A stretch of DNA of 64,000 nucleotides, from the NCBI GenBank assembly GCA_964479535.1, contig CAYZMM010000004.1, forward strand, positions 70,459-134,458, given 5' to 3'. A program made the translations under genes and the position numbers. Origin of the DNA: an uncultured Thermodesulfobacteriota bacterium (GTDB taxonomy: Bacteria; Desulfobacterota; DSWW01). Each line of letters begins with the position of its first letter. The stretch's first letter is position 1. The notes under the pieces are model-generated. The model was given only the letters and a program-made list of their open reading frames with translations. It was not told the origin of the DNA and ran no database searches. Of the stretch, positions 8,542 to 62,413 are shown piece by piece.

Positions 8542-9840
8542 TTGTACTGGAACGAAGCGTGCGAATGCTGCGGCCGGGAAGACCTGGAGAGGCTTCAGCT
8601 GGAGAGGTTGCAGCGTCTGGTCGACAGGGTCTACCGGCAGGTGCCCTTCTACCGGAACAGGCTCGAGGGAGCGGGCATCGGGCCCGCGGACATCCGCAGC
8701 CTCGAGGATCTCGAGAAGATCCCCTTCACTACAAAGGCCGACCTTCGCGACAACTATCCCTTCGGCCTCTTCGCCGTGCCCATGGATGAAATCATCCGGC
8801 TACACGCCTCGACCGGCACCACGGGAAAGCCCACGGTGGTCGGGTACACGCGAAAAGACATCGACACATGGGCAGAGGTCATGGCCCGGACGCTGGTTTC
8901 GGCGGGCGCGCACCAGGGGGACATCATCCAGGTCGCCTACGGCTACGGCCTGTTCACCGGAGGGCTGGGCGCCCATTACGGCGCCGAGAAGATCGGAGCG
9001 GCGGTCGTGCCGGTCTCGACCGGGAACACGAAGCGACAGATCACGCTGCTCGAGGACTTCGGAACCACGGTTCTCTGCTCGACCCCCTCCTACGCGCTGT
9101 ACCTGGCAGAGGCGGCGGAGGAGCGAGGCGTCTCCACGTGCGCCCTTCCGCTGCGGGTGGGCGTGTTCGGAGCCGAGCCCTGGACCGACAGTCTGCGGAA
9201 GGAGATCGAGAGGAAGCTCCACGTATCCGCCATCGACATCTACGGCTTGAGCGAGATCATCGGCCCCGGCGTGGCGTCCGAGTGTGAGGCGAAGGACGGA
9301 CTGCACATCATGGAGGATCATTTCCTGCCCGAGATCATCGACCCGGACACGGGGGAGCCGCTGGAGGAAGGCGCGGCCGGTGAGCTCGTGATCACGACAC
9401 TGACCAAGGAGGGAATCCCCCTCCTGAGGTATCGGGTGCGGGACATCACGCGACTGACCCGGGAGCCGTGCCCCTGCGGCAGGACCACGGCCCGCATGGA
9501 GCGTGTCACCGGGCGATCGGACGACATGCTGATCATCCGGGGGGTCAACGTGTTTCCGTCCCAGATCGAGAGCGTTCTGCTGGGAATTCCGGAGGCGGCT
9601 CCGCACTACATGATCTACGTGGACCGGGAGAAGACCCTCGACACCCTCGAGATCCATGTGGAGGTCTCGGAGGAGATGTTCTCGGACGAGGTCAGAGAAA
9701 TGGCGGGAATCGAGAAGCGGATCCGTGGGGAAGTGGAAAGCATCCTGGGGATCGGCGTGAAGATCAAGCTCGTGGAGCCCAGATCGATCACCCGGAGCGA
9801 GGGCAAGGCGGTACGCGTGATCGATCGAAGAAGGACGTAG
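8542..9840 (+). CDS. paaK: phenylacetate-CoA ligase (PaaK-type adenylate-forming enzyme)
   Basis: A TTG start is preceded by an AAGGAG RBS. The [10 protein letters not shown]-loop and the overall length match PaaK. Confidence 0.8.
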
Positions 9841-22121: not shown

Positions 22122-22448
22122 CGTGACCTGCTTGCGCTCGCCCTCCAGTGCGGGCCTGGACTGCAGGATCCTGTCGGCCAGGTGCTTGGGGGTGTAGGAC
22201 TGAGGCCGGGAATAGTCGATGGGCGCAGCCGTTCTACACTTTAGAAATACGGAGTGGACCCTGTCAAGAGAATCCTTGAGGTCATGAAACGAGGAAAAGC
22301 CTATACGAGTCCGGAAGGAAACCGAGGGGCAGGGGAAATCCGAATCTCCTCTGTGTCAAGTCATCTGAGGACCAAAGGGGATTAACGGCCACTTCCCGAC
22401 GAGAGTCGGCATGCTCCCGATTGACAGCACCCCTCAGGAAGCCTTGAA

Positions 22449-22676
22449 TCACGTCTTCTTCAGGACCGATGCAGGGAGTTCTGCTTGATCGAGGATTGAC
22501 TTGATGGTTTTGGGAGCGAGAGTTTCCTTGGCATGAACCGGAACCGTAACGTGGAGTCTACCGTCTTCGCTCTCGAAATGGTGGTGACTGCCTCTCACGT
22601 GACTCAGAGAGAATCCATGTTTCATCAGGATCCTGCAGAGTTGCTTTCCTGTTACTCTTCCGAGTTTCCGAGTCAA
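22449..22676 (-). CDS. hicA: HicA toxin (mRNA interferase)
   Basis: 75 aa with the RGSHHHF...VTVPVH HicA signature. It has a 4-nt overlap with hicB. Confidence 0.8.
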   Translation of the reverse strand: MTRKLGRVTGKQLCRILMKHGFSLSHVRGSHHHFESEDGRLHVTVPVHAKETLAPKTIKSILDQAELPASVLKKT

Positions 22677-22906
22677 GCCGCGACCTCTATTCTGATTCTC
22701 GCATCCGGCTCAAACTCTCTGGGAACAGGCTTCTTCGCCTTCCTGAGACCCTCGATGTGACAGAGGATAGCCTCTCTCGCCCTGTCTATGCATTGCTCGA
22801 TGTCCTTCCCTTGCGTAACGCAGCCCGGAAGGACAGGAACCGTCACCGTAAACATCTTAGCCTCTTTGTCGTAATACAACTCGATGTTGTAAGTCAGTTT
22901 TCTCAT
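22673..22906 (-). CDS. hicB: HicB antitoxin (UPF0150 / RNase-H-like fold)
   Basis: YNIELYYDKEAKMFTVTVPVLPGCVTQG is typical of HicB. The start is at 22906, with 22924 possible. Confidence 0.75.
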   Translation of the reverse strand: MRKLTYNIELYYDKEAKMFTVTVPVLPGCVTQGKDIEQCIDRAREAILCHIEGLRKAKKPVPREFEPDARIRIEVAA

Positions 22907-22995
22907 ATCAAAATCCTCCAGCATCGAGTAATCTGGATGAGGCTCCGGTAGGCAGCAGCCCTTCACGACACCGAAGCCTGACCAGCAACAACCAA

Positions 22996-23024
22996 ATACT
23001 ACAGAAGGTCCGAAGAAATGACAA
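22996..23024 (-). promoter_or_regulatory. putative sigma70 promoter for hicBA (TTGTCA-17-TAGTAT on the minus strand)
   Basis: It sits roughly 70-90 nt upstream of the hicB start in locally AT-rich sequence. Confidence 0.3.
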
Positions 23025-23099
23025 TTGCGAACCGGTCCCTATCTCGCTTGCGCATTGAAATGATTCAAGATAAGGGTCGTGTGTTCTCCCTGGGGCGCC

Positions 23100-23330
23100 C
23101 ATGCCGGACAGACCTGCTTCCGTCCGTTGCCGGCAACTCCGCCAGCTCGTTCCTCACCTTGGCCGGCTCGGTCAGGTGTCCCAGTCGCTCGAAGATCACC
23201 AGGGCATCTGTCAGGTATTTTCGTGCCTCCTGCACGTTCCCCTGCTGCTTGTGGTACCGGCCCATGCCGGAGTAGTCAAGGGCCAGTTCGTTTTCGGCCT
23301 TGATCTCTCTGTTGATGGATACGCTCTCCC
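23100..23330 (-). pseudogene. orphan C-terminal TPR fragment of a further cyclase-STAND-TPR paralog (remnant)
   Basis: ENELALDYSGMGRYHKQQGNVQEARKYL...VRNELAELP closely parallels the extreme C-terminus of copy 4 (ENELALAYASMGRFYKMQGNMEKTREYL...VRKELADLP). Confidence 0.5.
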
Positions 23331-23601
23331 CAAGCTGAGACGATGATTGCGAGTTTGACCCTCTTACCGTCTTTCCTGCCCGTTCTACTCGGTGGACTTT
23401 AAAGCCCCCGTAAGGCAAAATCGTAAAAAGGAGGACAAACTTGCTTGAACGACCATAATCCTGTCTTCCTAACGCGGCTTGCACCTCAGAGGGAACGTCA
23501 GGATGATCAAGCCCGCCACAAGATGGTCTTGTCGACTTCTCCCTCTCGCTACGAATGTCTACTTCCTGTCGCTCTTGATGGTGCCCAGTGTCTGACGAGG
23601 T

Positions 23602-26600
23602 TCATGCCAGCTCGTCGAGAAGGGCCTTCGCCTCCTTCAGGTCGCGGGTATCGAGGCCCTCGGTGAACCAGTCGTAGACAGGTGCGAGTAGATCGCGGGC
23701 CTCTTGCCTGCGGCCCTGCTTCCGCCACAGGCGGGCGAGGCCCGTCGCGGCACGAAGCTCATAGGATTTCGCGCTCTGGCGCCGCGCTACCTCGAGCGCA
23801 TCGCGGAAGGACGCCTCCGCCCCTTCCGGGTCGGCAGGCGTACGAGCGAGAACCAACTCGGCCTTTACGCGATGCAATTCCGCCTCGCCCCAGTGTTCGC
23901 CGGTCTTCCTCACGAATTCCAGTTCCTCCGCGGCGGCGGCAAGCCCTTCCTCCACTTGCCCTGCCTTCCTGTGTGCTCCGGCCAAGAGGGCAAGATACCA
24001 CGACGATCCCACCACTGCCCCCCTGGCCCGCATACCCTCGATAACAGAGCGCATTCCGGCGATTCCCTCCTGCAGATCGCCCTGCTCAGCGAGAGCCGCG
24101 CCGCGAAAGCCGGCTCCGAATGCCAGATACGAAGGAAACCCCTGCTCGCTCGATAGGGCGATCAGCGTTTCTGCTGTCTCAAGGGAGGCCTTCGACTCGC
24201 GACGAAACATGTGGACGATACCGAGACCGAGGAGGGCAGTTCCCTCACTGAAGGCATGGGAGAGTTCCCGGGCAAGGGCGAGGCCCTGCCGGGCTCTTGT
24301 CAGGGCCTGATCCGCGTACCCGAACGGGAACAGCGTCCAGCTGAAGAAAAGGAGCCCCCATATGCCAACATTGGCTGTGGGCTTGAGGTATTCGTGGCCC
24401 CGGTGCTTCTTGGGGTCGTAGAGGCGGAGGAGCTCTTCGAGATGTTCCCGGGCCTCGTAAAACTCTCCCCGATAGAAGGATGCCACGCCCATGCCGAAGA
24501 GCGCACGCAGGAGTTGTCCCGGGTCGTGTGACTCGCGGGCCACACCGAGCAGTTCCTCGGCGAGCAATTGCGACTTGTCATGCTCAGCACGAGCGATTTG
24601 GACCGTCCGCAGTCCGTTCAACGCCGCAAACAACTGAGAAGCGTCCCCCAGGCACCGGGCGAGATCTCGGGCGCGCACATACGCCTGCTCCGCTTCCGCG
24701 GACGCCAAGCCCTCGATCACGAGCAAAGCCTGGCCGAGTGCGGACTGCACGACCAGCTCCAGCTCGTCCCGCTCCCGGGTGTCGGACAGGGTCTTCAGGA
24801 GTTCGAGAGCCTGCCTGAGCCGGGCGATAGCCTCGCCGTACGCCGAGCGCGCCACCGCCTGCTCACCGGCCAGCCGCAGGTACTCGACAGCCTTGGGCGT
24901 GTTCGCGCTCCGGCCGTAGTGATGGGCCAGTTCCTCGTAATGGGCGTCGAGCGCCTGAGGGTTGAGAGCCTCGATGGCCTGCCCGGTGCGCTCGTGCAGC
25001 ACGCCCCGGCGCTCCCGGAGTAGCGACCCGTACGCCACTTCCTACGTGAGTGCGTGCTTGAACGTGTACTCCGGGTCCGGAAAGGCCGGCCGCTCGTAGA
25101 TGAACTCCGCTGCCTGCAGATGCGAGAGCTCTCTGGAGAGATACTCCTCGGCCTCTCCGGCCACGGCGCGGATGAGGCCCAGGGAGAACTCCTTGCCGAT
25201 CACGGCCAGGGTCTGCAGCAGGTCCTTCTCCCGGGAAGGCAGCCGGTCGATGCGTGCCCCGATCACCCCCTGAACCGTGGCCGGGATGTGGAGTTCTGTC
25301 GGGGATCTCTTCAGACGGTAATGACCCGGCTCCCCTGCGAGCACCCCTTCCTCGACGAGCGTCTGCACCAGCTCCTCCAGGAAGAAGGGGTTTCCCTGGG
25401 TCTTGGAAAGGATGAGCCGGTCCAGGGCCTCCCGCTCTTCTCCCGCCCCTTCGCCCAGAAGGGCACCGAGCAGCTCCCTTGACTCCTCGGCTCCGAAAGG
25501 ATCCAGCCTGAGCTGCGTGTAGCAGGTCCTGCTCCCCCAGCCGTGCCCGTACTCGGGCCGGTAGTTGACCAGCAAGAGGAGCCTCGCCGTGGCCACACTG
25601 TCGACGAGCACGTCCAGGAAGGCCTGCGTCTCGGAGTCGATCCAGTGGAGATCCTCGAAGAGGAGAACACAGGGCTGGTTGAGGGTCTCCCGCACCAGCA
25701 CGCGTTTCACCGCCTCCAGGGCCCGCTGCCGCCGGATCTGCGGGTCCATCTGCTCGAGGGAGCCCGTCCTGTCTCCGATGCCGAGGAGGGTGAAGAGATA
25801 CGGCAGGGTGTCCTCGAGCGTGCGGTCCAGGGCGAGCACGGTCCCGGTGACCTTCTCCTGCCTCCGGCGCTCGTCGTCTTCGATCCGGATTCGGAAATAG
25901 CCCTTCAGAAGTTCGAGCAACGGCAGGTAGGCGTATGCCTTGCCGTGGGAGACCGAGAAGCCCTCGAGCACGCGGCAGCCGCTCGTAAGCTGCTCTTTGA
26001 ACTCGTAGAGGAGGCGCGACTTGCCCACACCCGCCTCGCCCAGCACTGCCACGATCTGCCCGCGGCCCGCCCGGGCTGCCTCCCAGGCGCGCTCAAGCTC
26101 TCCCATCTCCCGCCGCCGGCCCACGAAGCGCACAAGCCCTCGCCTCGCGGCTACCTCCATTTTCGTTCGCAGGGGGCCCACGCCCTGCAGCTCGAAGACA
26201 CGCAGCGGTTCCTGCACGCCCTGCACGTTGAAGCGGCCCAGATCGCTGAGGCGGAGCGCCGCGTAGCACGCCCGCTGCGCATGGTCCTCGTGGGCAATGG
26301 GCGCACCGAACAGCGCCATGATCCCGTCGCCCGTGTACTGGTTCACGGTTCCTTCGAAGCGGTGGACCCCATCGGCCAGGATCTGGAAGAAACGGTCGAG
26401 GATGCGGTGCCACTCCTCCGGGTCCACCTGCTCGGCCAGCTCCATGGACCCCTTCACGTCGGCGAAGAGGACGGTCACCTGCTTCCGCTCCCCATCCAGT
26501 GCGGACCCGGACTGCAGAATCCTGTCGGCCAGGTGTTTGGGCGTGTAAGACTGAGGCTGCAAGTGGTCTATCGTGGCGGCTTCAACAGGCTTTCTCAGGT

Positions 26601-26742
26601 CGTGGCCGCATCTATCACAGAACCTGCTTTCCGGTGTATTCAGGTTTGCGCATTGAGGGCAGGAGAGTTCCAGTTTGCTCCCGCACGCCTTGCAGAAGGT
26701 GGCCCCCTCTCTGTTTTCGGCGTGGCAAGTGGGGCACTTCAT
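23602..26742 (-). pseudogene. Zn-ribbon - cyclase - AAA/STAND - TPR paralog 2, disrupted by an in-frame TAG at 25039-25041 and an in-frame deletion of about 243 bp in the cyclase domain
   Basis: The two ORFs 25042..26742 and 23602..25038 share a frame and are separated only by TAG, where copy 1 has CAG. The cyclase domain lacks roughly 81 aa present in copies 1, 3 and 4. Confidence 0.75.
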
Positions 26743-26778
26743 CCAGGTCCTCCAAGCCGATTCAGGCGAATCGATGCC

Positions 26779-27183
26779 CTATAGCAATTTCACCTGTCTC
26801 AGGGCCTTGACCTTCCTGTGAAGCTTCTTGTCTGACGTGACGAGATCACACGCAAGCCGCCTTGCCAGCTCGACATATGCGGCATCGTAGAGGGTGATTC
26901 CATAGCGTCTGGACAATCGGATGGCGCTCGAGAACTCCTCGAATCCAAGGTCAAAGACCTGGAGGTCAAAATTCCACAGCATGGAGAACACCTCGGAGAC
27001 CGCCCCTGCATCCAGCCTTGTCCGCGTTAGGAGCACGTTGGCCGCTTCATAGAAGAACAGGTCCGGCACGGCGATCGGCTCTTCTCCGGAAACGTGCACG
27101 TCCCTGTAACGAAGGGCTCGATCACTGCCTTCCTCGTTCTCAAAGATCCACTTGAGGACGACCGATGCATCCAATACGATCAT
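26779..27183 (-). CDS. vapC: VapC PIN-domain toxin
   Basis: MIVLDASVV...YEAANVL...YDAAYVELA...TSD gives the PIN acidic residues. A 4-nt overlap with phd is present. Confidence 0.8.
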   Translation of the reverse strand: MIVLDASVVLKWIFENEEGSDRALRYRDVHVSGEEPIAVPDLFFYEAANVLLTRTRLDAGAVSEVFSMLWNFDLQVFDLGFEEFSSAIRLSRRYGITLYDAAYVELARRLACDLVTSDKKLHRKVKALRQVKLL

Positions 27184-27458
27184 CTGCTGTCTCTCATCTC
27201 GCGGATTGCCCCCGTCACATCCGTTCGGCTGGTCTCTTTCCCATGTCGCTCTTTCCACTTCTCCATGCCTGCACAGATCTCCTGAAGTTTCCGGCCCCTC
27301 TCCTTTTTCAGTATCCTCTCCTCATACTCATCTACGGAAATGATGACCGCGAGGGGCTTGTTTGCCCTTGACACGATGAAGCGCTCCTTTCGGTCGTGAA
27401 CCTCGTTCAGAATGCTTCCGAGCTTCTTCCTTAGGTCCAGCGCAGTCAGTCTCTTCAT
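27180..27458 (-). CDS. phd: Phd/YefM-family antitoxin
   Basis: 93 aa. FIVSRANKPLAVIISVDEYE is classic for Phd/YefM. Confidence 0.75.
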   Translation of the reverse strand: MKRLTALDLRKKLGSILNEVHDRKERFIVSRANKPLAVIISVDEYEERILKKERGRKLQEICAGMEKWKERHGKETSRTDVTGAIREMRDSR

Positions 27459-27480
27459 TGTCTTCTCCCTTCTGGGTTCA

Positions 27481-27510
27481 ACTATACTATGAGCTATCAT
27501 AGTCACTATG
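27481..27510 (-). promoter_or_regulatory. putative phd-vapC operator: inverted repeat CTATGA-N4-TCATAG plus ACTAT direct repeats immediately upstream of phd
   Basis: The palindrome at 27487-27502 lies 30-50 nt upstream of the phd start codon. Confidence 0.35.
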
Positions 27511-27732
27511 TCAATGAGATCTGGCCTGGGCTCCCTCCGAATGCGCCCTAAGACGTGATGCACGCGAGGGCCTCCCGGGCGCGGGTGAGCCAGTAGCTCC
27601 AGGGGGCGTTCATTTCCAGGCATACGGCTTCCGCTTTTTTCAGGTTACCCACGGCTTCTTCTCTTCTCTCCGGATCGGCGAACAGCCCCCCGAAGCGGTA
27701 GGGTGGATGAAGCGAAGCGAATCCGCCACAGT

Positions 27733-30700
27733 TCACGTAAGCTCCTCGAGAAGGGCCTTCGCCTCCTTCAGGTCGCGGGTGTCGAAGCCTTCCGTGAACC
27801 AGTGGTAGACCGGTGCGAGCAGCTCGCGGGCCTTTTGCTTGCATCCCTGCTGCTGCCATAGGCGGGCGAGGCCCGTCGCCGCTCGAAGCTCATATGATTT
27901 CGCGCTCTGGCGCCGCGCTACCTCGAGCGCATCGCGGAAGGACGCCTCCGCCCCTACTTGGTCGGCGGGTGTATGACCGAGAAGCAACTCGCCTTTTACG
28001 CGATGCAACTCTGCCTCCATCATGCGCTCGTCGGTCTTTGTCACGAATTCCAATCCCTGCGCCACGAGAGCGACACCTTCCTCCACTTGTCCTGCCTTCC
28101 TGTGTGCCCGGGCCAAGAGGGCAAGAAACCACGAAGATCCCAGGACTGCGCCCCTGGCCCGCATACCCTGGAGAACCGACCGCATCCCGGCGATTCCCTC
28201 CTGCAGCTGTCCCTCCTCGGTGAGCGCCTCGAGGCGAAGCCAGGCTCCGAATGCCAGATAGTACGCAAACCCATGCTCGCTTGAGAGATTGATTACAGCC
28301 TCTGCTGTCTGAAGAGATGCCTTAGAGTCGCGCCGCTCCAGGTAGATACGGCTAATACAGAATAGGGCAACTGACTCACTGAAGGGATCAGAGAGCTCCC
28401 GCGCCAGGGCGAGCCCCTCCAGGGCCCTCTTGAGGGCCTGGACCGGGTAACCGAGGGAGACAAGCGTCCAGCTGAAGAAGAAGAGGCCCCATACGCCAAC
28501 ATTCGCTGAGGCTGAGAGGTAATCATGGCCCCGATGTTTCTTCGGGTCGTAAAGGCCGAGGAATTCTTCGAGATGCTCTCGGGCCTCCGAAAACTCTCCC
28601 CGATAAAAGGATGTCCCGCTCATGGCATGCAGCGCGCGCAGGAGTTGTCCCGGGTCGCGTGACTCGCGGGCCACACGGAGCAGTTCCTCGGCGAGCAGAC
28701 GAGCTTTGTCATGCTCAGCACGTACCTGTTGGCCCGCCCGCAGTCCGGTCAACGCTGCAAACACCTGAGAAGCATTCCCCAGGCACTCAGCGAGATCCCG
28801 GGCGCGCAAATACGCCTGCTCTGCTTCCACGGACGCGAAGGTCTCGGTTACGTCCAAGGCCTGGCCGAGTGCGGACTGCAGGGACAGCTCCAGTTCGTCC
28901 CGCTCCCGGGTCTCGGGCAGGGTCTTCAGGAGTTCGAGAGCCTGCCTGAGCCTGTCGATCGCCTCCCCGTAGGCCGAGCGCGCCACCGCCTGCTCACCGG
29001 CCAGCCGCAGGTACTCCGCGGCCTTGGGCGTGTTCGCACTCCGGCCGTAGTGGTGGGCCAGCTCCTGGTAGTGCTCGTCGAGTGTTTCGCTGTAGACCTT
29101 CTCGATCGCCTGACCCACCCTCTCGTGTATTGCCCCGCGCCTCTCTCGCAGCATGGACCCGTACGCCACCTCCTGCGTGCGTGCGTGCTTGAACGTGTAC
29201 TCCGGGTCCGGAAAGGCCGGCCGCTCGTAGATGAACTCCGCTGCCTGCAGATGCGAGAGCTCTCTGGAGAGATACTCCTCGGCCTCTCCGGCCACGGCGC
29301 GGATGAGGCCCAGGGAGAACTCCTTGCCGATCACGGCCAGGGTCTGCAGGAGGTCCTTCTCCCGGGAAGGCAGCCGGTCGATGCGGGCCCCGATCACCCC
29401 CTGAACCGTGGCCGGTATGTGCAGCTCCCCCGGGGATCTCTTCAGACGGTAATGACCCGGCTCCCCTGCAAGCACCCCTTCCTCGACCAGGGTCTGCACC
29501 AGTTCCTCCAGGAAGAAGGGGTTTCCCTGGGTCTTCGCCATGATGAGCCGTTCGAGCTCGGTCCGATCTGCGCTTGCCTCATCCCCCAAGAGGGCTGTTA
29601 GTAGCTCCCGAGCCTCCACATCCCCCAGTGGATCCAGCCGGAGCTGTGTGTAGCAGGTCCTGCTCCCCCAACCGTGCCCGTACTCGGGCCGGTAGTTCAC
29701 CAGGAACAGGAGCCTGGCCGTGGCCACGCTGTCGACGAGCACGTACAGGAAGGCCTGGGTCTCGGAGTCGATCCAGTGAAGATCCTCGAAGACGAGCACA
29801 CAGGGCTGGTCGAGGGTCTCCCGCACCAGCACGCGCTTCACGGCCTCCAGGGTCCGCTGCCGCCGGATCTGTGGGTCCATCTGCTCGAGCGGGCCGGTCA
29901 GGTCTCCGATGCCCAGGAGGGTGAAGAGATACGGCAGGGTGTCCTCGAGCGTGCGGTCCAGGGTCAGCACGGTCCCGGTGACCTTCTCCCGCCTCCGGCG
30001 CTCGTCGTCTTCTAGGCCGATTCGGAAATACCCCTTCAGAAGCTCGAGCAACGGCAGGTAGGCGTATGCCTTGCCGTGGGAGACCGACAAGCCCTCGAGC
30101 ACGCGGCAGCCGCTCGTAAGCTGCCCCTTGAACTCGTAGAGCAGGCGCGACTTGCCCACACCCGCTTCGCCCAACACCGCCACAATCTGGCCGCGGCCCG
30201 CCTGGGCGGCCTCCCACGCCCGCTGGAGCTGCTCCATCTCCCTCTGCCGGCCCACGAAGCGCGAAAGCCCCCGTCTTTCGGCTACCTCCATTTTCGTTCG
30301 CAGGGGGCCCACGCCCTGCAGCTCGAAGACCCGCAGCGGTTCCTGCACGCCCTGCACGTTGAAGCGGCCCAGATCGCCCAGCCGGCAGAGGCCCTCGACC
30401 ATCTTGGCCGTGTGCTCGCTGAGATAAGCCTTTCCCGGCTCCGCCAGTTGCTCCATGCGCGCCGCAAGGCCCACGGTCTGGCCCTGGGCCGTGTAGTCCA
30501 TCCGCAGGTCGTCGCCGATCTTACCGACCACCACTTCGCCCGAGTTGAGCCCCATCCTGACCGAGAACCGAAGCCCCTTCTCCCGTTTCAACTCTGCCGC
30601 GTACCGCTGCAGTCCCTCGCTCAGGCGGAGCGCCGCGTAGCAGGCCCGCTGAGCGTGATCCTCGTGAGCGATCGGCGCCCCGAAGAGCGCCATGACACCG

Positions 30701-31116
30701 TCGCCGGTGTACTGGTTCACCGTTCCCTCGAAACGGTGCACGCCGTCCGCAAGGATCTGGAAGAACCGGTCGAGGATCCGGTGCCACTCCTCCGGGTCGG
30801 TCTGTTCAGCCATTTCCATCGAGCCCTTTACGTCTGCGAAGAGGACGGTGACCACTTTCCGTTCGCCCTCGATCGAGCTGCGGGTCGTGAGGATCTTTTC
30901 GGCAAGGTAGTTCGGGGTGTAGGACCGAGGTTGGGAGTAGTCGACGGCGGGCGTTGCTACGGGCTTGGTCAGGTCATGGGCGCAATCGCCGCAGAACTTA
31001 TCGTTCGGAAGAACTTCAGCCCCGCACTGAGGGCAGGCGAGGACGAGTCTCGCCGCACATGCCCGGCAGAACTTCTTGTTATCCGGGTTGTCCGTCTGGC
31101 ACTGAGGGCATTTCAT
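27733..31116 (-). CDS. double Zn-ribbon - class III nucleotidyl cyclase (CHD) - AAA/STAND NTPase - TPR protein, paralog 3 (intact, 1127 aa)
   Basis: Two CPxC...CxxC ribbons are followed by a full CHD domain, a P-loop NTPase and long TPR-like C-terminal helices. No interruptions are seen. Confidence 0.85.
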   Translation of the reverse strand: MKCPQCQTDNPDNKKFCRACAARLVLACPQCGAEVLPNDKFCGDCAHDLTKPVATPAVDYSQPRSYTPNYLAEKILTTRSSIEGERKVVTVLFADVKGSMEMAEQTDPEEWHRILDRFFQILADGVHRFEGTVNQYTGDGVMALFGAPIAHEDHAQRACYAALRLSEGLQRYAAELKREKGLRFSVRMGLNSGEVVVGKIGDDLRMDYTAQGQTVGLAARMEQLAEPGKAYLSEHTAKMVEGLCRLGDLGRFNVQGVQEPLRVFELQGVGPLRTKMEVAERRGLSRFVGRQREMEQLQRAWEAAQAGRGQIVAVLGEAGVGKSRLLYEFKGQLTSGCRVLEGLSVSHGKAYAYLPLLELLKGYFRIGLEDDERRRREKVTGTVLTLDRTLEDTLPYLFTLLGIGDLTGPLEQMDPQIRRQRTLEAVKRVLVRETLDQPCVLVFEDLHWIDSETQAFLYVLVDSVATARLLFLVNYRPEYGHGWGSRTCYTQLRLDPLGDVEARELLTALLGDEASADRTELERLIMAKTQGNPFFLEELVQTLVEEGVLAGEPGHYRLKRSPGELHIPATVQGVIGARIDRLPSREKDLLQTLAVIGKEFSLGLIRAVAGEAEEYLSRELSHLQAAEFIYERPAFPDPEYTFKHARTQEVAYGSMLRERRGAIHERVGQAIEKVYSETLDEHYQELAHHYGRSANTPKAAEYLRLAGEQAVARSAYGEAIDRLRQALELLKTLPETRERDELELSLQSALGQALDVTETFASVEAEQAYLRARDLAECLGNASQVFAALTGLRAGQQVRAEHDKARLLAEELLRVARESRDPGQLLRALHAMSGTSFYRGEFSEAREHLEEFLGLYDPKKHRGHDYLSASANVGVWGLFFFSWTLVSLGYPVQALKRALEGLALARELSDPFSESVALFCISRIYLERRDSKASLQTAEAVINLSSEHGFAYYLAFGAWLRLEALTEEGQLQEGIAGMRSVLQGMRARGAVLGSSWFLALLARAHRKAGQVEEGVALVAQGLEFVTKTDERMMEAELHRVKGELLLGHTPADQVGAEASFRDALEVARRQSAKSYELRAATGLARLWQQQGCKQKARELLAPVYHWFTEGFDTRDLKEAKALLEELT

Positions 31117-31175: not shown

Positions 31176-31365
31176 TGTTCTAAATGCTAGAAAATAAAGA
31201 TAAAGGAGTCAATAATTGTTTTGCGTCAGGTAGGGCGGGGGCCGTCTCGATGTGAGATGATGGCAAATTTCAACCGATTTGTTTTTTCCCGTATGTTTCA
31301 AATACTTGTGTTCATCTTGATGGATTGGCACGGCCGTTGCTCTACCCTGATCCAACAACACCCTC
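31176..31365. repeat. divergent-promoter module, copy A; homologous to 38968..39236, with a degenerate third copy near 22240..22290
   Basis: GTTCTAAATGCTAGAAAATAAAGATAAAGGAGTCAATAATTG and GATGGATTGGCACGGCCGTTGCTCTACCCTGATC are conserved between the copies. Confidence 0.6.
31326..31341 (+). promoter_or_regulatory. sigma54 (RpoN) -24/-12 promoter, TGGCACG-N4-TTGCT, oriented toward the MMPL-CNB gene
   Basis: A perfect match to the sigma54 consensus with correct spacing. The identical element recurs at 39191-39206. Confidence 0.55.
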
Positions 31366-31548
31366 TTCTCGCTGAACGAGGCGATGGAGCACTCCATCCT
31401 CCTGGGATTCTGAGCATTGGAAGTTCCCCCGGGGCCTTCCGCCGATTCACCGCAGGGCGGTGGATCGCGTTGACACCGGATTCCGGACTCCCCTATACTT
31501 CACCCCAGGCGGGCACCTCTCATCTTCTCTCAAGAAGATGGAGAACGT

Positions 31549-34296
31549 ATGGACCGATTCTACGGTTGGATCGTCCGCAGGCCGAAGCTGATTCTCCTCC
31601 TCCTCGTTCTTCCCACAGCATTCCTTGCCCTTCAGGCGCGACACATCCGGTTGGACAGCTCCATCGAGAGCCTCCTGCCGAGGGAAGACCCTGAAAAGAA
31701 GTACTACGAAGAGATTCGTCAACTCTACGGCAGTGACGAGATCGTCGTGATCGGCCTCATGGCGGACAACGTCTACAGGCCGGAAACCGTTCAGAAGATC
31801 GAGCGGATCACGGAAAAGATCCGAGAGATGCCCGAGGTGAAGAGCGTTGCGAGCCTCACCAACGCGCAGGATGTGATCAAATCCGTTGCCGAGGACACCC
31901 TGCTCATCCCGGAGATTCCCACCACCGAGGAAGGATGGGAAGAGGTCAAGGGCAGGGTCGCCGAGCACCCCGTCTATCTGAAGAACCTGGTCTCCCCCGA
32001 TGGTCGCGCGGCCGCGATCAACGTCACCTTCCTGGAGAGTGTGTCGGACGAGGCGTTCCTGCGCCGCGGGATCGACGAGAGAATTCAGAAGATCCTGGAC
32101 GCGGAACAGGGGCCGGAGAAGCTCTACTACACGGGGCTTCCTCGCTTCAAGGTCCACGTGGTCCAATCCATGCGGGGAGATTTGAAGTCCTTTCTCCCCC
32201 TGGTGCTGCTCTGCATCGCTGTCGTCATGTTCGCAAGCTTCCGCTCTCTGCGTGGGGTGATCCTGCCTGCGGTTACCTCCGTCGTAGGCCTGACCTGGAC
32301 CCTCGGGATCATGGTGCTGGCCGGAAGTTCCCTGAGCCTGGGGAGCATCACACTTCCCCCTTTGCTCCTCGTCCTGGGCACGGTCTACTCCCTGCACGTG
32401 GTGGCCGAGTACTACGAATTGGCCCGGCCCGGCACGCCGGCGGGCGAGGTGGTCCTCGAGACCCTCAGAAAGACCGGAATGCCCGTCCTGATTACGGCAC
32501 TGACCACCGCCCTGGGCTTCGCGGCCCTGGCCGTGAACCGCATCGTCAGTATCCGGGAGATGGGCCTCTTCTCCGCAGCAGGCATCCTGTTCGCCTTCCT
32601 GCTCTCGGTGACCCTTGTGCCGGCGATCCTCTGCCTGTTGCCGCTGCCCAAGAGGCGGGCAGACCGGTTTTCGCCCGTGTTGACCTCGACACTTCAACGG
32701 ATAAGCCGCCTGGACATCCGATACCGCAGGCCGATCATCCTTGCGGGAATCCTCATTGCGGTCCTCGCAGCCTGGCAGATTCCCTCGATCATGGTGGACT
32801 CGAACTTCCAGTCCTTCTTCCGCAAAGACGACCCGATCCGCAAGGCCAGCGATGTCATCAACGAGCATCTTGCCGGAAGCTCTGCCTTCTACGTCACCAT
32901 CGACGGCGAGAAGACGGGCCTCGTGAAGAAATGGGACACCTTGAAGCGAATCAAAGAGCTTCAGCTCTACATCGACGCTTTGCCCGGAATCGAGAAGACG
33001 ATTTCCCTGGTGGACTACTGCGAGATCCTGGACAGAGGGATTCAGGCCGTGCCCCCCTGGGAGGAACCGCCCGAGCCGCAGGAGCCGGAGCCCCAGACGA
33101 CCTTCTGGGAGAATCCTTCCCAGCTCGACGGCGTCATGCAGCTGGTGTTCCTGAATGCGAAGAGCATATCCGGCGTTGCGAACCATCCCGTGTTCTCGCG
33201 GACGAACATCATCGTTCGCACCTCCCTCACCCACGCCAGCGATGTGGCCGCCACGGTGGAGAAGATCGAGGCGTTTGCCGCCGAGACCTTTCCCCCGGAG
33301 CTCACCGTGAGGACCACCGGCGAGTTGATCCTTCACACTCGCACGAGCGGCGACATCGTGAGGGGGCAGATTCAGAGCCTGGGGCTTGCCGCCGGGATCA
33401 TCTTCCTCGTCATGTCGACCATGTTTCTCTCCGTTCGGATCGGCCTGATCGCCATGGTTCCGAACCTCTTCCCGATCATGGTCTTCTTCGGGCTCATGGG
33501 CGCCTCAGGGGCCGTCCTCAGCCTGAGCACGAATATCATTGCCGCGATTGTCCTGGGGATCGCCGTGGACGATACCATCCACCTCATGTCACGCCTGAGT
33601 TCCCAGGTCAGGGCAACGGCCGACCGGGAAGAGGCCCTCCTTCACACCTTCTCCACCGTGGGGAAGCCCGTCTTCTACACGTCCGTGATCCTGTTCCTGG
33701 GCTTTCTCACGCTCTGCGTCTCCTCCTTTGTGCCGATCCGGGAATTCGGCATTCTGGCCGCCTTCACGATGATCGTGGCTCTTGGCGCAGATGTGGTCTT
33801 GTTGCCCGCCATCCTGTCGACCACGCGGTTCATCACCCTGTGGGATCTGCTCTATCTCAAGCTGGGCCGGGATCCGCACAAGGTCATTCCCCTCTTTGAC
33901 GGACTGAGGCCCTTGCAGGCCAAGATCGTCACCCTCATGGGCGAACTCAAGACCTTCACCCACGGCGATGCGATCGTCCGTCAGGGGGATATGGGCAATG
34001 AAATGTTCGTTCTGCTCAAAGGCACGGCGGAGATTCACATCCAGGCCGAAGGCCGGTCCAGACGCATTGCCGGGCTCGAGAGAGGGGACGTCTTTGGAGA
34101 AATGGGACTGCTTCGCCATCATGAACGCACGGCAGACGTCGTTGCTTCCGAAGATGTGGAAGTCCTGGCCGTAAACGAGCGCTTCCTCTCGCGCATCAAG
34201 CGCCGGTACCCGCGAATCGGCGCCCAGATCTTCTTCAATGTGGCAAAGATCCTCAGTGACCGCCTCGAAGAGGCAAGAAAGGTCCCCTCGGTATAG
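31549..34296 (+). CDS. RND-superfamily MMPL/HpnN-like exporter (two SSD/12-TM halves) fused to a C-terminal cyclic-nucleotide-binding (CAP-family) domain
   Basis: 915 aa with MMPL-type TM/periplasmic-loop topology. The last roughly 120 aa carry FGEMGLL...R..TADVVA, the cNMP phosphate-binding cassette. Confidence 0.75.
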   Translation: MDRFYGWIVRRPKLILLLLVLPTAFLALQARHIRLDSSIESLLPREDPEKKYYEEIRQLYGSDEIVVIGLMADNVYRPETVQKIERITEKIREMPEVKSVASLTNAQDVIKSVAEDTLLIPEIPTTEEGWEEVKGRVAEHPVYLKNLVSPDGRAAAINVTFLESVSDEAFLRRGIDERIQKILDAEQGPEKLYYTGLPRFKVHVVQSMRGDLKSFLPLVLLCIAVVMFASFRSLRGVILPAVTSVVGLTWTLGIMVLAGSSLSLGSITLPPLLLVLGTVYSLHVVAEYYELARPGTPAGEVVLETLRKTGMPVLITALTTALGFAALAVNRIVSIREMGLFSAAGILFAFLLSVTLVPAILCLLPLPKRRADRFSPVLTSTLQRISRLDIRYRRPIILAGILIAVLAAWQIPSIMVDSNFQSFFRKDDPIRKASDVINEHLAGSSAFYVTIDGEKTGLVKKWDTLKRIKELQLYIDALPGIEKTISLVDYCEILDRGIQAVPPWEEPPEPQEPEPQTTFWENPSQLDGVMQLVFLNAKSISGVANHPVFSRTNIIVRTSLTHASDVAATVEKIEAFAAETFPPELTVRTTGELILHTRTSGDIVRGQIQSLGLAAGIIFLVMSTMFLSVRIGLIAMVPNLFPIMVFFGLMGASGAVLSLSTNIIAAIVLGIAVDDTIHLMSRLSSQVRATADREEALLHTFSTVGKPVFYTSVILFLGFLTLCVSSFVPIREFGILAAFTMIVALGADVVLLPAILSTTRFITLWDLLYLKLGRDPHKVIPLFDGLRPLQAKIVTLMGELKTFTHGDAIVRQGDMGNEMFVLLKGTAEIHIQAEGRSRRIAGLERGDVFGEMGLLRHHERTADVVASEDVEVLAVNERFLSRIKRRYPRIGAQIFFNVAKILSDRLEEARKVPSV

Positions 34297-35502: not shown

Positions 35503-37359
35503 TTATCCTTCCGAAGGTAAATCTGCCAGCTCCTTCCTAACCTTCTCCGGCTCAATCAGGGCACCCAATCGCTCGAGAATCTTCACGGCATCGGCCAGGT
35601 ATTCGCGGGTCTTTTCCATGTTTCCTTGCATCTTGTAGAAGCGGCCCATAGACGCGTAGGCTAGGGCGAGTTCATTCTCGGCCTTGTTTTCCTTTGCCAG
35701 TTCCACACTTCTCTCAAAATGGGGAAGACCTTCTTCCGAACCGGTTGCCACGGCAATTTCTCCAAGCAGTCGGTAAGCCCATGGGAGGAACACGCGCCCG
35801 TTGCGGCGGGATTGCAGTTCAAGATGTACGTCAAGCATTTCCCTCGCTTTATCGTGCTCTTGTTCCGAACAGAACACTTCTCCTAGAATGGCGGTGGAGA
35901 AGAGTTCGGCCACTACGAATCGCGAGCTTCTGAACAGAGGGATAAGAGTCTCGATCACCTCCGGTTCTTTCCCTACATTGCCCGTTCGGCAACGGGCCCA
36001 GGCCAGGCATGTTATCGCCAGAGCCATGTCTCCCGGCGTGGAAGCCTTTTGCACCGCCAACTCGCCATATGCTATCGCTTGCTGGAGATCCCATTTGAAC
36101 GTGTGCGATACGCATAGTGTGAAGTAAGACCATGAGCTGTTGCTGTTATCCGCGTAGTTCTCAGCGATCCTGCATGCCTCTTCACCCAGCTTTTCCGCCT
36201 CACTCCACCGTCCGAGAAATGCGTTCGTCCATGTTGCTGCATTCAACGCCCACACCGAAGTACGGAGGTTGAACTGTTTGTCCATCTGGGCGAAGCACTT
36301 CTCCTTCAATGAGGACACCGCCTCCAGATCGCCCAACCACATATGATCCCATTCCATAATGCAGTACGCATACCCTGCATCTTCAGCATTTCCCGCCGAC
36401 TCACACAGTTCGGCCGCTTTACTCAGTGTAGATATGCCTTGCCGTGGGAGACCGAGAAAGCTTCCAGTACCCGGCATCCCTTAGCCAGAGGTGTCTTGAA
36501 CTCATAGACAACGCAACAGGCCTCGTTTCGCCGACACCTCCAAGGGGGTCCTTATCGGCCCTACGCCCTGAAGCTCGTATACACGCAGCGCCTCCGAGGT
36601 TCCCGCGATTTTCGACTCCCCCAGGTCCAGGAGTTGGAAAACCCCCTCCACGAGCCGCGCCGTGTGTTGGCTCAGATAGGCGTGGCCCGGCTCTGCGAGT
36701 TGCTCGACTCGCTGCGCTAAACCCACCGTCTGCCCCTGAGCCGTGTAGTCCATGCGCAGGTCATCTCCGATCCTCCCCACCACCACTTCCCCGGAATTCA
36801 GGCCGAGACGGGCCGAGAAGTTCAAGCCCCGCTGCAAGCGAAGCTCTTGCGCGTACTTTCTAAGTTGCTCACAGAGTGCCAGAGCCGAGTAGCAGGCCCT
36901 CTGCGCATGGTCTTCGTGCGCGATAGGCGCACCGAAGAGCGCCATGATCCCGTCACCCGTGTACTGGTTGATGGTCCCTTCGTAACGGTGGACCCCATCG
37001 GCCAGGATCTGGAAGAAACGATCAAGGATCCGGTGCCACTCCTCGGGGTCGACCTGTTCGGCCAACTCCATGGACCCTTTCACGTCGGCAAACAGCACCG
37101 TCACCTGCTTCCGTTCGCCTTCAAGTGCCGACTTGGTCTGGAGGATCTTGTCGGCGAGATATTTGGGGGTGTAGGACTGAGGCTGAGAGTAGTCGATCGA
37201 AGGGGCCTCCGCGGGCTTTCTGAGATCATGGCCGCATTTCTTGCAGAATTTGCCATCCGCGGGCGTCTCCGACCCGCATTTGGGGCAACGGTATTCGATG
37301 GGATTCCCGCAGTCGATGCAAAACTCAGCATCGTCAGGGTTCTGTTTGACAAAGCCCGT
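35503..37359 (-). pseudogene. Zn-ribbon - cyclase - [AAA domain deleted] - TPR paralog 4; no start codon ahead of the Zn-ribbon
   Basis: Cyclase ORF 36502..37104 and TPR ORF 35503..36477 lie in different frames with no P-loop region between them. The Zn-ribbon coding sequence (37105-37359) follows the acyl-CoA ligase TAG stop in frame, without any ATG/GTG/TTG. Confidence 0.65.
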
Positions 37360-38937
37360 CTACTCTCCTGACAGGGTTTTCGCTTTGAGGGTTCTCTTGT
37401 CTACCTTTCCTGTGGGATTGATGGGCATGGAGTCAAGGAATCGGATATCCCGGGGACGCTTGTAGTCGGCCAGTTTGTCCTGGGTGAAATCGTGGAGTTC
37501 TTCGGCTGTGACCTTCTCGCCCGGCTTCAGTGCCACGAAGGCCAGTACGTCTTCGCCGAGCTCCGGATGGGGCTTTGCAACCACCGCGCACTGTCCCACA
37601 GCCGGGTGTTCGTACAAAACACTCTCCACCTCCAAGGAGTAGACGTTGAATCCCCCGCGGACGATCATGTCCTTCTTGCGGTCTGTGAAGTAGAGGTAAC
37701 CCTCGTCATCGCTCCGTCCCATGTCTCCGGTGTAAAGCCAGCCGTCTCGTAGGGTCTGCGCGGTAGCTTCCGGGTTCTTGTAGTATTCCTTCATGACGTT
37801 CGGCCCACGGAGGACGATCTCTCCCACGTCTCCAGGGTCCAGGTTGTGTCCCTGGTCGTCCACGATCCGGAATTCCTGTTCCGGTGCCCACGGATGGCCC
37901 ACCGATCCAAGCTTGGTGTGTGTTTCAGCCGCATTCAGGGTTGTCCCACCGGTCCCCGCCTCTGTCAGGGCATAGGTCGTGTATACCTTGATACCCGGCC
38001 ACGCAGCGTGCACTCTCCGGATGACTTCCTCGGGCATGGCCGCAGCGCCCGAGATGAGCGACCGAAGGGAGGAGGTGTCGAACTCTCTGAATCGAGGGTG
38101 ATTCAAGAGGAAGACAAACATGGCGGGTGCACCGCCGTAGCTCGTGGGCCGTTCCTTCTCGATGGTCTCAAAGGTCTTCACCGGGTCGAAGGTTTCCTCG
38201 AGGATGAGTACCGGCGCGGAATAGAGCCACAACATCATGACCGAGCTGCAGCCGCTCGAGGTGAAAAAAGGGTAGCAATTCTGGGTGCGGGGCACTCCGT
38301 GATGAAGGCGTGACAAACCTAGGGAAGCGCCGATCAATCGGCCACAGGCAACCTTGTTCGCCTGGGTGAGTACAACCCCCTTCGGAAGGCCCGTGGTCCC
38401 GCTTGTGTACAATATGTCGGCTTCATCGTCCGGGCCGATGGAGACTGCCGGTGGAGAGCCCGAGGAAGCCATCCGCTTCGTGAACGATTCGACCCAGTCC
38501 GGCAGTTCCTGTCCCTCCTTTTCGATTCCCACATAGCCCTTGATGTTCAGCCGCTCCCGTATCTGATCGACCAGGGGAAGGAAGTCGTGCCCTCCGATCA
38601 TCCAGTCCGCGTCCGAGTGCTCCACGATGTACTCCACTTCCCGCGGGACCAGCCGGACGTTGATCGGGACGAACACGGCACCCAGCTTGTGGATCGCGAG
38701 GTACGTGTAGTAGCACTCGACGCTGTTGGTGAGCATGAACGCGACCTTCTCACCCTTCTTCACACCCAGGTCTGAAAGTCCGGCCGCGAGCCGTGTCGAC
38801 TGCTCGTCCATCTCCCCCCAGGTGTGACGAAGCCACTCCCTGGTCCGGTACGAGAAGGAAACAAAGGCCTCCCGGTCCGGGAAGTCGTCCACGTTTCGCT
38901 CCAGCAATTCGCGAATGGTCTCCGGTGCTCGCCACAT
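37360..38937 (-). CDS. acyl-CoA synthetase (AMP-binding enzyme, medium-chain/aryl type)
   Basis: 525 aa with the YTSGTTGLPKG adenylation motif. It ends on a TAG stop. Confidence 0.8.
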   Translation of the reverse strand: MWRAPETIRELLERNVDDFPDREAFVSFSYRTREWLRHTWGEMDEQSTRLAAGLSDLGVKKGEKVAFMLTNSVECYYTYLAIHKLGAVFVPINVRLVPREVEYIVEHSDADWMIGGHDFLPLVDQIRERLNIKGYVGIEKEGQELPDWVESFTKRMASSGSPPAVSIGPDDEADILYTSGTTGLPKGVVLTQANKVACGRLIGASLGLSRLHHGVPRTQNCYPFFTSSGCSSVMMLWLYSAPVLILEETFDPVKTFETIEKERPTSYGGAPAMFVFLLNHPRFREFDTSSLRSLISGAAAMPEEVIRRVHAAWPGIKVYTTYALTEAGTGGTTLNAAETHTKLGSVGHPWAPEQEFRIVDDQGHNLDPGDVGEIVLRGPNVMKEYYKNPEATAQTLRDGWLYTGDMGRSDDEGYLYFTDRKKDMIVRGGFNVYSLEVESVLYEHPAVGQCAVVAKPHPELGEDVLAFVALKPGEKVTAEELHDFTQDKLADYKRPRDIRFLDSMPINPTGKVDKRTLKAKTLSGE

Positions 38938-38967: not shown

Positions 38968-39236
38968 GTTCTAAAACATAGAAAATAGAGATAAGAGTGT
39001 CAATGATTTCTTTGTGTTCGGAAAGGTGTGGGCGCCGTGAAGGGGGATGGCAGCACATGTCAATCGAGTGGGCTTTTGGATAGTTCCTTTTTGCTCGTAA
39101 AGAAAATATACGAACCGTCGGCAGTTGCAGGCTCCTCCGCATTCTTCTAAAAGCTATACACTTTGGGGGTTTATGTTTGGCCTGATGGGATGGCACGTCC
39201 GTTGCTCTACCCTCTGATCAAACAAGAAACCCAAAC
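38968..39236. repeat. divergent-promoter module, copy B (homolog of 31176..31365)
   Basis: On the minus strand it gives TTGACA-17-TATGTT upstream of the acyl-CoA synthetase. On the plus strand it gives the sigma54 element. Confidence 0.6.
39191..39206 (+). promoter_or_regulatory. sigma54 -24/-12 promoter, TGGCACG-N4-TTGCT, oriented toward the small ORF and the PAS kinase
   Basis: The core is identical to the element at 31326-31341. Confidence 0.5.
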
Positions 39237-39271
39237 ACGGAGGACAGCATGAGAGAAGGGAGGGTGTCACA

Positions 39272-39478
39272 ATGAAAGCGAGTAGAAACACCATCCGACT
39301 CCGAGGGCCGGCTGATGTTTCGTCGCCCTGGGAAGAGGTGAAGGAGTGGGCGAGAAGGAACGTCACGAACGATAGGGTTGCTGAGGTCAGCCTGTCACTG
39401 GCGGCCGCTGCTTCGCTATGCTATCTGGGAGCCAGGATCTTCGTGGGTGTGCAGAACTACGTGATGTATGCCTATTAG
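39272..39478 (+). CDS. hypothetical small protein (68 aa) with a C-terminal hydrophobic segment
   Basis: A GGGAGGG RBS sits 8 nt before the ATG. It lies about 55 nt downstream of the sigma54 element. Confidence 0.35.
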   Translation: MKASRNTIRLRGPADVSSPWEEVKEWARRNVTNDRVAEVSLSLAAAASLCYLGARIFVGVQNYVMYAY

Positions 39479-39501: not shown

Positions 39502-39521
39502 ATTCCCGCCTACGCGGGAAT
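39502..39521 (+). terminator. stem-loop ATTCCCGC-ctac-GCGGGAAT downstream of the small ORF
   Basis: An 8-bp perfect stem with no T-tract, so a classic intrinsic terminator is doubtful. Confidence 0.2.
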
Positions 39522-39736: not shown

Positions 39737-39764
39737 TTGACAAGATAATTTTAATTTATATAAA
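39737..39764 (+). promoter_or_regulatory. sigma70-like promoter (TTGACA-16-TATAAA) with a 12-bp perfect palindrome CTGCAATTGCAG at 39712-39723 just upstream
   Basis: An AT-rich tract sits ahead of the kinase gene. Confidence 0.35.
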
Positions 39765-39883
39765 GTTTATTTGCCGCAGAGGTCCTGTGCCCCCAAGGAC
39801 TACTCGCCCTTACGTTGCTCTCTCTGGTGCTCATCCTGCCCCGGAGGGGGACACTGTTTCGCCTTTTGGAGCGAGAAGCTGAC

Positions 39884-59870: not shown

Positions 59871-59897
59871 GGGGCCTCTCCTGCTCGTTGATCCGCC

Positions 59898-61128: not shown

Positions 61129-61168
61129 ATGGCACCTCTCCTCTTTCGAGGCTGTCCCGCCAGCCTCC

Positions 61169-62383: not shown

Positions 62384-62413
62384 CCTGTCGTATCCCCTTG
62401 CGGGTTTGCACCC

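Follow-up and report, generated by a model that had tools for sequence, protein, structure and literature searches.

The 64,000-nt stretch of DNA studied here (the window; positions are counted from its first letter) contains two similar segments, copies A and B, each placed between divergent genes, and these raise the question of which promoters they carry and which genes those promoters serve. The first-pass annotation had described them as a duplicated bidirectional module made up of two blocks: block 1, a leftward sigma70-type promoter for a cyclase gene (cyclase copy 3) and for an acyl-CoA synthetase gene, and block 2, a rightward sigma54 promoter aimed at an MMPL transporter gene with a cyclic-nucleotide-binding domain (MMPL-CNB) and at a small open reading frame (ORF) followed by a PAS kinase gene. 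Pattern scans compared with expected counts confirmed that the two blocks are common to both segments, far beyond chance, and a Pfam domain scan agreed with the gene calls. We consider it likely that the two segments are old paralogous copies of a divergent control region, in which a sigma54 promoter for small proteins is paired with a sigma70 promoter and operator. The region spans ~260 bp and is also found in several related uncultured bacteria. Coordinates are collected in Table 1.

The rightward sigma54 element and its small-protein cargo

Block 2 matches TGGCACG-N4-TTGCW exactly in both copies, and a scan of the window showed that both exact matches are intergenic. When one mismatch was permitted, the window contained 3 matches compared to 0.40 expected, a number reached in 0 of 100 shuffles; the third match (60505, minus strand) lies inside a minus-strand ORF that matches FtsX/MacB (59898-61364). 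The GG and GC of the motif are one helical turn apart, as in the canonical -24/-12 consensus, and copies A and B remain alike past the core (TGATGG..TGGCACG.CCGTTGCTCTACC..CTGATC.AACAA). We aligned the two window instances with six others from five related metagenome contigs (related loci are referred to below by L numbers) and found that TGGCAC, CCGTTGC and the spacing between them are invariant in all eight, with differences confined to the spacer and the flanks. Moreover, in seven of the eight instances the element points towards a nearby gene start: a small ORF begins with an ATG ~45 nt past the motif, behind a GGAGG ribosome-binding site. Downstream of copy A, 208 nt separate the element from the next intact gene. 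Invariant contact positions combined with a fixed distance of ~45 nt to a gene are the pattern expected of a working sigma54 promoter with the small-protein cassette as its conserved cargo. Thus, with an exact consensus present twice and -24/-12 positions that do not vary among eight instances, the earlier description of block 2 as a textbook sigma54 promoter holds; we infer its sigma54 dependence from this consensus, its conservation and its position relative to genes.

The exact block 2 pattern was also sought among 185,579 species-representative genomes, where it had 10 matches in unrelated phyla and without flanking similarity; by these features, the matches are independent and unrelated predicted sigma54 promoters. 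A further perfect site occurs in L011 (18140-18155, TGGCACCTCTCTTGCT, then CTACCC as well), upstream of a GAF-GGDEF gene, which suggests a broader sigma54 regulon with second-messenger genes in this lineage.

The conserved cargo consists of one or two genes for single-pass membrane proteins of 55-70 aa. This family had 159 members in a database of 5.8 billion proteins, and its members have in common a K-x-W-A motif and, after it, a single long hydrophobic helix; in the 68-aa protein of the window, VKxWARR precedes this helix. Comparison of the small proteins with Pfam and NCBIfam yielded nothing credible (one member matched MtmB at chance level, E = 0.044), while AlphaFold modeled the 68-aa protein as a short helix and one long helix with low confidence (predicted local distance difference test, pLDDT, 62). 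In literature searches, we found neither the regulatory module nor the small-protein family described.

The arrangement of the cassette in related loci bears on which gene it serves. Homologs of MMPL-CNB with 78-89% identity exist in metagenomes and their contigs were inspected; a metagenome scan with the MMPL protein yielded 2 loci, L014 among them, and an exact-sequence look-up of the window MMPL-CNB protein returned no record. The order in L014 is sigma54 site, 55-aa ORF, 68-aa ORF, TTGACA/TATACT promoter and MMPL-CNB. The sigma54 promoter and small ORFs are placed directly 3' of MMPL-CNB in L019 and L011. In L025 and L027, which were found via the small-protein family, a block 1 with the left flank of window copy A lies ~220 bp upstream of TGGCACGGCCGTTGCT, followed by two 68-aa ORFs. 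Small-protein cassettes are also found apart from any MMPL gene, in L027 and in the plus-strand copy of L025.

Both the 45-nt leader and the start of the leading small ORF (its first ~20 nt, ATGAGAACGGACGGACAGAC) are more alike in nucleotide sequence among paralogs and genomes than the protein requires, which hints at an RNA-level constraint or at gene conversion. Rfam covariance models gave no match anywhere in the window, and the predicted fold of the copy A leader RNA is unremarkable (z = -1.63). In L019 (ENA contig_70617), there are frameshifts at 5500-5920 and 8573-9040, inside the MMPL-CNB gene and the small ORFs, that are probably long-read assembly errors; because of these frameshifts, the ORF calls in this locus are unreliable, but its intergenic sequence still aligns well.

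Copy B retains the conserved upstream element described below, the promoter, the leader and the 68-aa gene. The first-pass annotation had also aimed the sigma54 promoters at the PAS kinase and at MMPL-CNB, and this part of it did not stand: the conserved cargo is the small membrane-protein genes, and both of the other genes have sigma70-type sites. Since the PAS kinase gene has its own sigma70-like site, the small gene is therefore the probable primary target of the sigma54 element of copy B; read-through to the PAS kinase is possible but not required. In our reading, copy B is the working version, predicted to drive the 68-aa gene. The hairpin directly 3' of this gene (Table 1) is kept in L019 (9048-9067) with a compensatory change of a C:G to a T:A pair, and may be a 3'-end or processing signal, or resemble a repetitive extragenic palindromic (REP) element.

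A sigma54 promoter calls for an activator, and a candidate site for one lies upstream of copy B. A conserved element with the core TCGTA-N9-TACGA (39095-39113) is located roughly 80-100 nt upstream of the copy B -24 element, and an AT-rich stretch separates it from the promoter. It is present in six instances, partial in L014 at a contig end and absent from copy A, with nhmmer E values of 1e-28 to 1e-34, and its profile also matches itself on the reverse strand. In L019, L027 and L025, the core extends to an imperfect dyad of ~34 bp centered on CGATCG, and the center of the L019 dyad is roughly 125 nt upstream of the predicted start. Both the position and the symmetry of the element fit the binding site of a bacterial enhancer-binding protein (bEBP), for which it is a candidate.

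The claim that the window encodes no sigma54 enhancer-binding protein was confirmed by a motif search, by tblastn with PspF and by Pfam scans of ~50 ORFs. A six-frame search of the window for GAFTGA, ESELFGH and Walker-A motifs was negative, and tblastn with PspF returned nothing in the window at E<=1, although it detected enhancer-binding proteins in two control loci. Neither the window nor 151 kb of related loci yielded an rpoN gene. In a separate part of the window (59139-63226, minus strand), genes for an ABC ATPase, two MacB_PCD/FtsX permeases and a LolA-like protein are clustered; these Lol-type genes for outer-membrane lipoprotein sorting point to a probably diderm organism. Since sigma54 is almost universal in diderm bacteria with lipopolysaccharide (PMC3162934), the Lol-type genes give soft support for the presence of rpoN.

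In the mechanism we propose for rightward transcription, RNA polymerase with sigma54 would bind the promoter as a closed complex and would require an ATP-hydrolysing enhancer-binding protein encoded elsewhere. This activator would bind the dyad-symmetric element roughly 100-125 nt upstream of the predicted start, across the AT-rich stretch. The transcript would begin ~12 nt past the GC, carry a 45-nt leader with GGAGG, and encode one or two membrane proteins of 55-70 aa.

The leftward promoter, its palindrome and the relation of the copies

The block 1 pattern GTTCTAAANNNTAGAAAATANAGATAAG occurs at 31177-31204 and 38968-38995 with 0-1 mismatch, compared to 0.00 expected. An independent consensus scan recovered TTGACT-17-TAGCAT and TTGACA-17-TATGTT on the minus strand at these sites, and the -10 hexamers of block 1 end 30-70 nt upstream of start codons. 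Thus, hexamers, spacing and orientation all agree with the earlier assignment of block 1 as a sigma70-type promoter for cyclase copy 3 and the acyl-CoA synthetase. A degenerate third copy (copy C), previously proposed upstream of cyclase copy 1, is indeed present there; its nhmmer match is weak (E = 1.6), and it has kept the palindrome described next.

The window has 3 occurrences of the palindrome TTCTA-N5-TAGAA, compared to 0.015 expected, and all of them are at block 1 copies A, B and C. The layout common to block 1 is TTGAC(A/T), 14-15 nt, TTCTA, five variable bases and TAGAAC. The same design is found in relatives: in L025 and L027, in the MMPL-CNB promoters of L019 and L021 and, degenerate, of L020, and, with degenerate half-sites, in L025/L026 in front of a gene for an LCM methyltransferase. 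When 8-10 promoters are compared, the half-sites do not change, the 5-nt center does (each of the L025, L027, L019 and L021 palindromes has a different one), and TTGACA lies 17-18 nt from TAnnnT, which covers the left half-site and the center. Half-sites that stay constant around a changing center and cover the -10 and start site are characteristic of operators bound by a dimeric repressor. Most simply, then, TTCTA-N5-TAGAA is a candidate operator of this kind, common to several genes.

For leftward transcription, we propose that a sigma70 promoter would be used whose -10 and start site lie within TTCTA-N5-TAGAA, and that a dimeric repressor would bind the palindrome. The suggestion that block 1 marks the members of the cyclase family proved too narrow, since the putative operator recurs in relatives not just before cyclases, but also before the acyl-CoA synthetase-like gene, MMPL-CNB and the LCM methyltransferase.

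The comparison with related loci also bears on the history of the two segments. Block 1 of copy A is 72% identical to that of copy B and the identity to L025/L027 is 74-78%, and the other parts of the segments behave alike. The left flank of copy A is 85% identical to L025/L027, and the right-hand neighborhood of copy B (the small ORF, with an LCM gene further on) matches L025. Copies A and B thus resemble copies from other genomes at least as closely as they resemble each other, and we rejected a recent local duplication on this ground. Furthermore, the two blocks occur apart. Sigma54 cassettes without block 1 are found in L019, L011 and the minus-strand copy of L025, and block-1-type promoters without a sigma54 site are found upstream of MMPL in L019 and L021 and upstream of LCM in L025 and L026. 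Thus, on the loci compared, the two blocks are separable elements and do not form an obligate bidirectional unit. The earlier picture of a duplicated bidirectional module is accordingly retained for the divergent promoters, which exist at both copies, but neither for a recent duplication nor for an obligate unit.

The decay of copy A and competing readings

We considered the fate of copy A separately because its cassette is not intact. From ~31363, copy A aligns with the 3' ends of the small ORFs of L014, L019 and L025 and with the L014 spacer to the MMPL promoter. By this alignment, the small genes of copy A were removed by an internal deletion and copy A is a decayed version of the control region; within the remnant, a mini-ORF of 9 codons remains, starting from an internal ATG at 31384. 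Copy A has also lost 77 alignment columns of the upstream dyad element, and the nhmmer profile has no match there.

MMPL-CNB has its own sigma70 promoter (Table 1), which the first-pass annotation had overlooked, and the same TTGACA/TATACT promoter precedes the orthologous genes in L011, L012, L014 and L016. MMPL-CNB orthologs thus have two types of promoter: this one, without a palindrome, in the window and those four loci, and a block-1-type promoter with TTCTA-N5-TAGAAC in L019 (5403-5448) and L021 (793-810), degenerate in L020 (~720-760). The sigma54 element of copy A could reach MMPL-CNB only by read-through. A sequence scan found no terminator-like site between 31341 and 31549, so read-through is possible. 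We propose that copy A would still bind sigma54 polymerase and add regulated read-through into MMPL-CNB, which would otherwise be transcribed from its own sigma70 promoter.

Several observations weigh against our interpretation of the control region. The dyad is degenerate in copy B and in the minus-strand copy of L025, and no inverted repeat was called there. A bEBP gene was found neither in the window nor in 151 kb of related loci. Named relatives, at ~60% identity, conflict: for MMPL they are Binatia, Deltaproteobacteria and Methylomirabilota, and for a molybdopterin oxidoreductase they are Chloroflexota. Because the TA of the -10 hexamer falls inside the palindrome, some of the palindrome's conservation may be due to promoter function. 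Domain scans of roughly 50 window ORFs revealed no DNA-binding or helix-turn-helix domain, so the regulator of the palindrome, if any, is encoded elsewhere. Finally, copy A has neither its cargo nor the candidate activator site and its flanks drift faster, and it may be inactive.

This last point corresponds to the strongest alternative, in which the sigma54 element of copy A is a dead relic, left after loss of the small genes and the activator site, and MMPL-CNB uses its own sigma70 promoter alone. We regard this as a real possibility, although not the one we favor. It would account for the reduction of the copy A ORFs to a 16-codon remnant, for the missing upstream element and for the faster divergence of the promoter block, in which copy A is 61-64% identical to the other instances, compared to 75-85% among the others; moreover, the near-perfect promoter of MMPL-CNB is conserved in orthologous loci. 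In contrast, the sigma54 core of copy A is identical to that of L027 at 16/16 positions, whereas the remaining promoter block is identical at 35/64 (~55%). If unconstrained, the 12 specified positions would be kept by chance with an estimated probability of ~0.55^12 = 8e-4, an indication that the core is still under constraint. L012/L013 likewise have a sigma54 site followed, without an ORF, by a sigma70 promoter and MMPL-CNB, but the intervening sequence is unlike that of copy A; for this reason, the loss of small genes looks independent, and this recurrence, like the lack of a terminator-like site, speaks against a relic. Thus, we think that copy A may still bind sigma54 polymerase and add read-through transcription of MMPL-CNB.

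A different reading is that block 1, rather than serving as a promoter and operator, would act at a distance of 150-220 bp as the upstream enhancer (upstream activating sequence, UAS) of the sigma54 promoter. Block 1 is palindromic and lies at an enhancer-compatible distance in four instances. However, we consider this very unlikely and rejected it, because block 1 and the sigma54 site occur independently: the L019, L011 and L025 minus-strand cassettes keep promoter and small ORFs where block 1 is missing, and the block 1 copies that have no sigma54 site are nevertheless oriented towards MMPL-CNB or LCM. Moreover, the TTGACA/TAnnnT spacing is 17-18 nt in all copies, and copies A and B place block 1 and the sigma54 site at distances that differ by 73 bp.

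Most improbable of all is an origin of the shared blocks in recombination junctions or in a mobile or repetitive element, similar to miniature inverted-repeat transposable elements (MITEs) or REP sequences, of which they would be ends or pieces; this origin, and not promoter function, would then explain their conservation. The similarity of B and C does begin abruptly at GTTCTA, the very point at which cyclase copy 1 is cut short, and toxin-antitoxin genes are interspersed among the rearranged paralogs. In copy A, L025 and L027, however, the similarity runs on to the left into the cyclase leader (85% identity). Moreover, the positions that do not vary are precisely those contacted by sigma54 and sigma70, and the scan of species-representative genomes gave unrelated sigma54 promoters only, with no Rfam match. 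We therefore rejected a MITE or REP origin, as the 64 kb of the window contain 2-3 copies and no others, all of them at gene starts with fixed orientation and fixed distance to the downstream gene, and no homologous copies in the species-representative scan. Our preferred reading remains that of a divergent sigma54/sigma70 control region in two old paralogous copies.

Table 1. Elements and genes of the two control-region copies, with positions in the window unless a related locus is named.
Feature	Position	Strand	Details
sigma54 -24/-12 element, copy A	31326-31341	+	TGGCACGGCCGTTGCT; exact TGGCACG-N4-TTGCW; predicted start near 31352
sigma54 -24/-12 element, copy B	39191-39206	+	TGGCACGTCCGTTGCT; exact TGGCACG-N4-TTGCW; predicted start near 39217
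Conserved upstream element, candidate UAS	39040-39156	+	nhmmer E = 2.9e-30; no match in copy A
Block 1, copy A	31177-31216	-	-35 TTGACT 31212-31207, 17-nt spacer, -10 TAGCAT 31189-31184; serves cyclase copy 3 (predicted), ATG 31116
Palindrome, copy A	31178-31192		TTCTA-AATGC-TAGAA; spans -10 and start region
Block 1, copy B	38968-39008	-	-35 TTGACA 39003-38998, 17-nt spacer, -10 TATGTT 38980-38975; acyl-CoA synthetase-like gene, ATG 38937
Palindrome, copy B	38969-38983		TTCTA-AAACA-TAGAA
Block 1, degenerate copy C	22231-22268	-	TTGACA 22267-22262, 18-nt spacer, TAAAGT 22243-22238
Palindrome, copy C	22232-22246		TTCTA-CACTT-TAGAA; block adjoins truncated 5' end of cyclase copy 1
Zn-ribbon/cyclase/AAA_16/TPR gene (cyclase copy 3)	27733-31116	-	
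AMP-binding enzyme (acyl-CoA synthetase-like) gene	37360-38937	-	
Deleted small-gene 3' remnant, copy A	31363-31413	+	~16 codons (..LFSLNEAMEHSILLGF*); stop 31411-31413
Own sigma70 promoter of MMPL-CNB	31470-31499	+	TTGACA, 18-nt spacer, TATACT; 11/12 consensus; ~50 nt upstream of ATG 31549
MMPL (HAE3-type RND) transporter gene	31549-34296	+	C-terminal cyclic-nucleotide-binding domain
First-small-gene remnant, copy B	39249-39275	+	8 codons MREGRVSQ*; conserved leader, GGAGG and ATGAGA start kept; compared with L019, L025, L027
Leading small ORF start	39249-39254; L019 8573; L025 9745 and 4785; L027 9746; L014 185; L011 12904		
68-aa small membrane-protein gene	39272-39478	+	Conserved cargo of sigma54 copy B; no Pfam/NCBIfam match
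Hairpin	39502-39521	+	ATTCCCGC-CTAC-GCGGGAAT; perfect 8 bp, directly 3' of 68-aa gene; no U tract after it
sigma70-like site	39737-39766	+	TTGACA-18-TAAAGT; upstream of PAS histidine-kinase gene; consensus match alone
PAS/HisKA/HATPase/receiver gene	39815-42649	+	

The cyclase genes to the left of both copies belong to a tandem array of paralogous genes with Zn-ribbon, class III cyclase, AAA_16 and TPR domains (STAND-like; 19290-31116 and 35503-37350, minus strand). The 5' end of cyclase copy 1 is cut exactly at block 1 of copy C, cyclase copy 2 has a CAG to TAG nonsense codon (25039-25041), cyclase copy 3 is intact, and cyclase copy 4 consists of two fragments behind the acyl-CoA synthetase-like gene. 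Toxin-antitoxin pairs lie between the cyclase paralogs on the minus strand (22470-22966 and 26782-27500), a HicB-like antitoxin with a HicA-like ORF (the latter identified by eye only), and PIN with Phd/YefM. The cyclase and toxin-antitoxin region is thus a rearranged array that looks like a variable island. In L027, a cyclase of the window type is divergent from the sigma54 cassette.

Comparison with known systems and significance

The promoters glnAp2 and pspAp are canonical examples of the -24/-12 class recognized with sigma54 (RpoN). The element described here is like this class (general properties in PMC3162934) in its exact consensus, its intergenic location and its co-orientation with a gene, as well as in the conserved dyad ~100 nt upstream, which, with the AT-rich stretch between, fits a looping enhancer-binding protein. 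It differs in that it is known from sequence alone and in that its cargo is a previously undescribed small-protein family.

The pspG gene of E. coli is a PspF-dependent sigma54 gene for a small inner-membrane protein. The cassette is similar in having a dedicated sigma54 promoter for a very small membrane protein with the activator encoded elsewhere, but this is an analogy only: sequence gives no link, as the small proteins match neither Pfam nor NCBIfam, and there are no psp genes near the cassette. Divergent sigma70/sigma54 control regions are also known, as in pspF-pspA and xylR(Pr)-Pu, where, as here, sigma70 and sigma54 promoters point away from each other, no more than 150-225 bp apart, and flank regulatory sites. 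In contrast to those systems, the leftward gene here is a cyclase or acyl-CoA synthetase-like gene and not the activator, and the two promoters also occur apart in relatives. Lastly, the mycobacterial mmpS-mmpL pairs encode small membrane proteins beside MMPL transporters. Two small genes likewise lie directly upstream of MMPL-CNB in L014, and directly downstream in L011, L019 and L025; however, the proteins here are much shorter (55-70 aa) and have no MmpS match, and their cassettes are also found away from MMPL. Thus, we conclude that the control region is a new instance of a known sigma54 promoter class, well supported and ordinary as a regulatory principle, and that its cargo family is new.

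A broader scheme would unite the small proteins, the sigma70 promoters with palindromes, the cyclase paralogs and the cyclic nucleotide monophosphate (cNMP)-binding MMPL in one cyclic-nucleotide regulon peculiar to this lineage, in which the small proteins would be MmpS-like partners of MMPL-CNB, and an unlinked bEBP and the repressor of TTCTA-N5-TAGAA would be integrated. We offer this scheme as a speculation that is unlikely to be correct in full.

For a lineage without cultured or studied members, the analysis provides a candidate operator and a sigma54 promoter with good support, and it corrects the gene targets of each promoter. The sole functional clue to the small-protein family is its tight, predicted sigma54 control beside cNMP-related genes, and the family offers a handle for finding the matching activator and for testing a partnership with the MMPL-CNB transporter.

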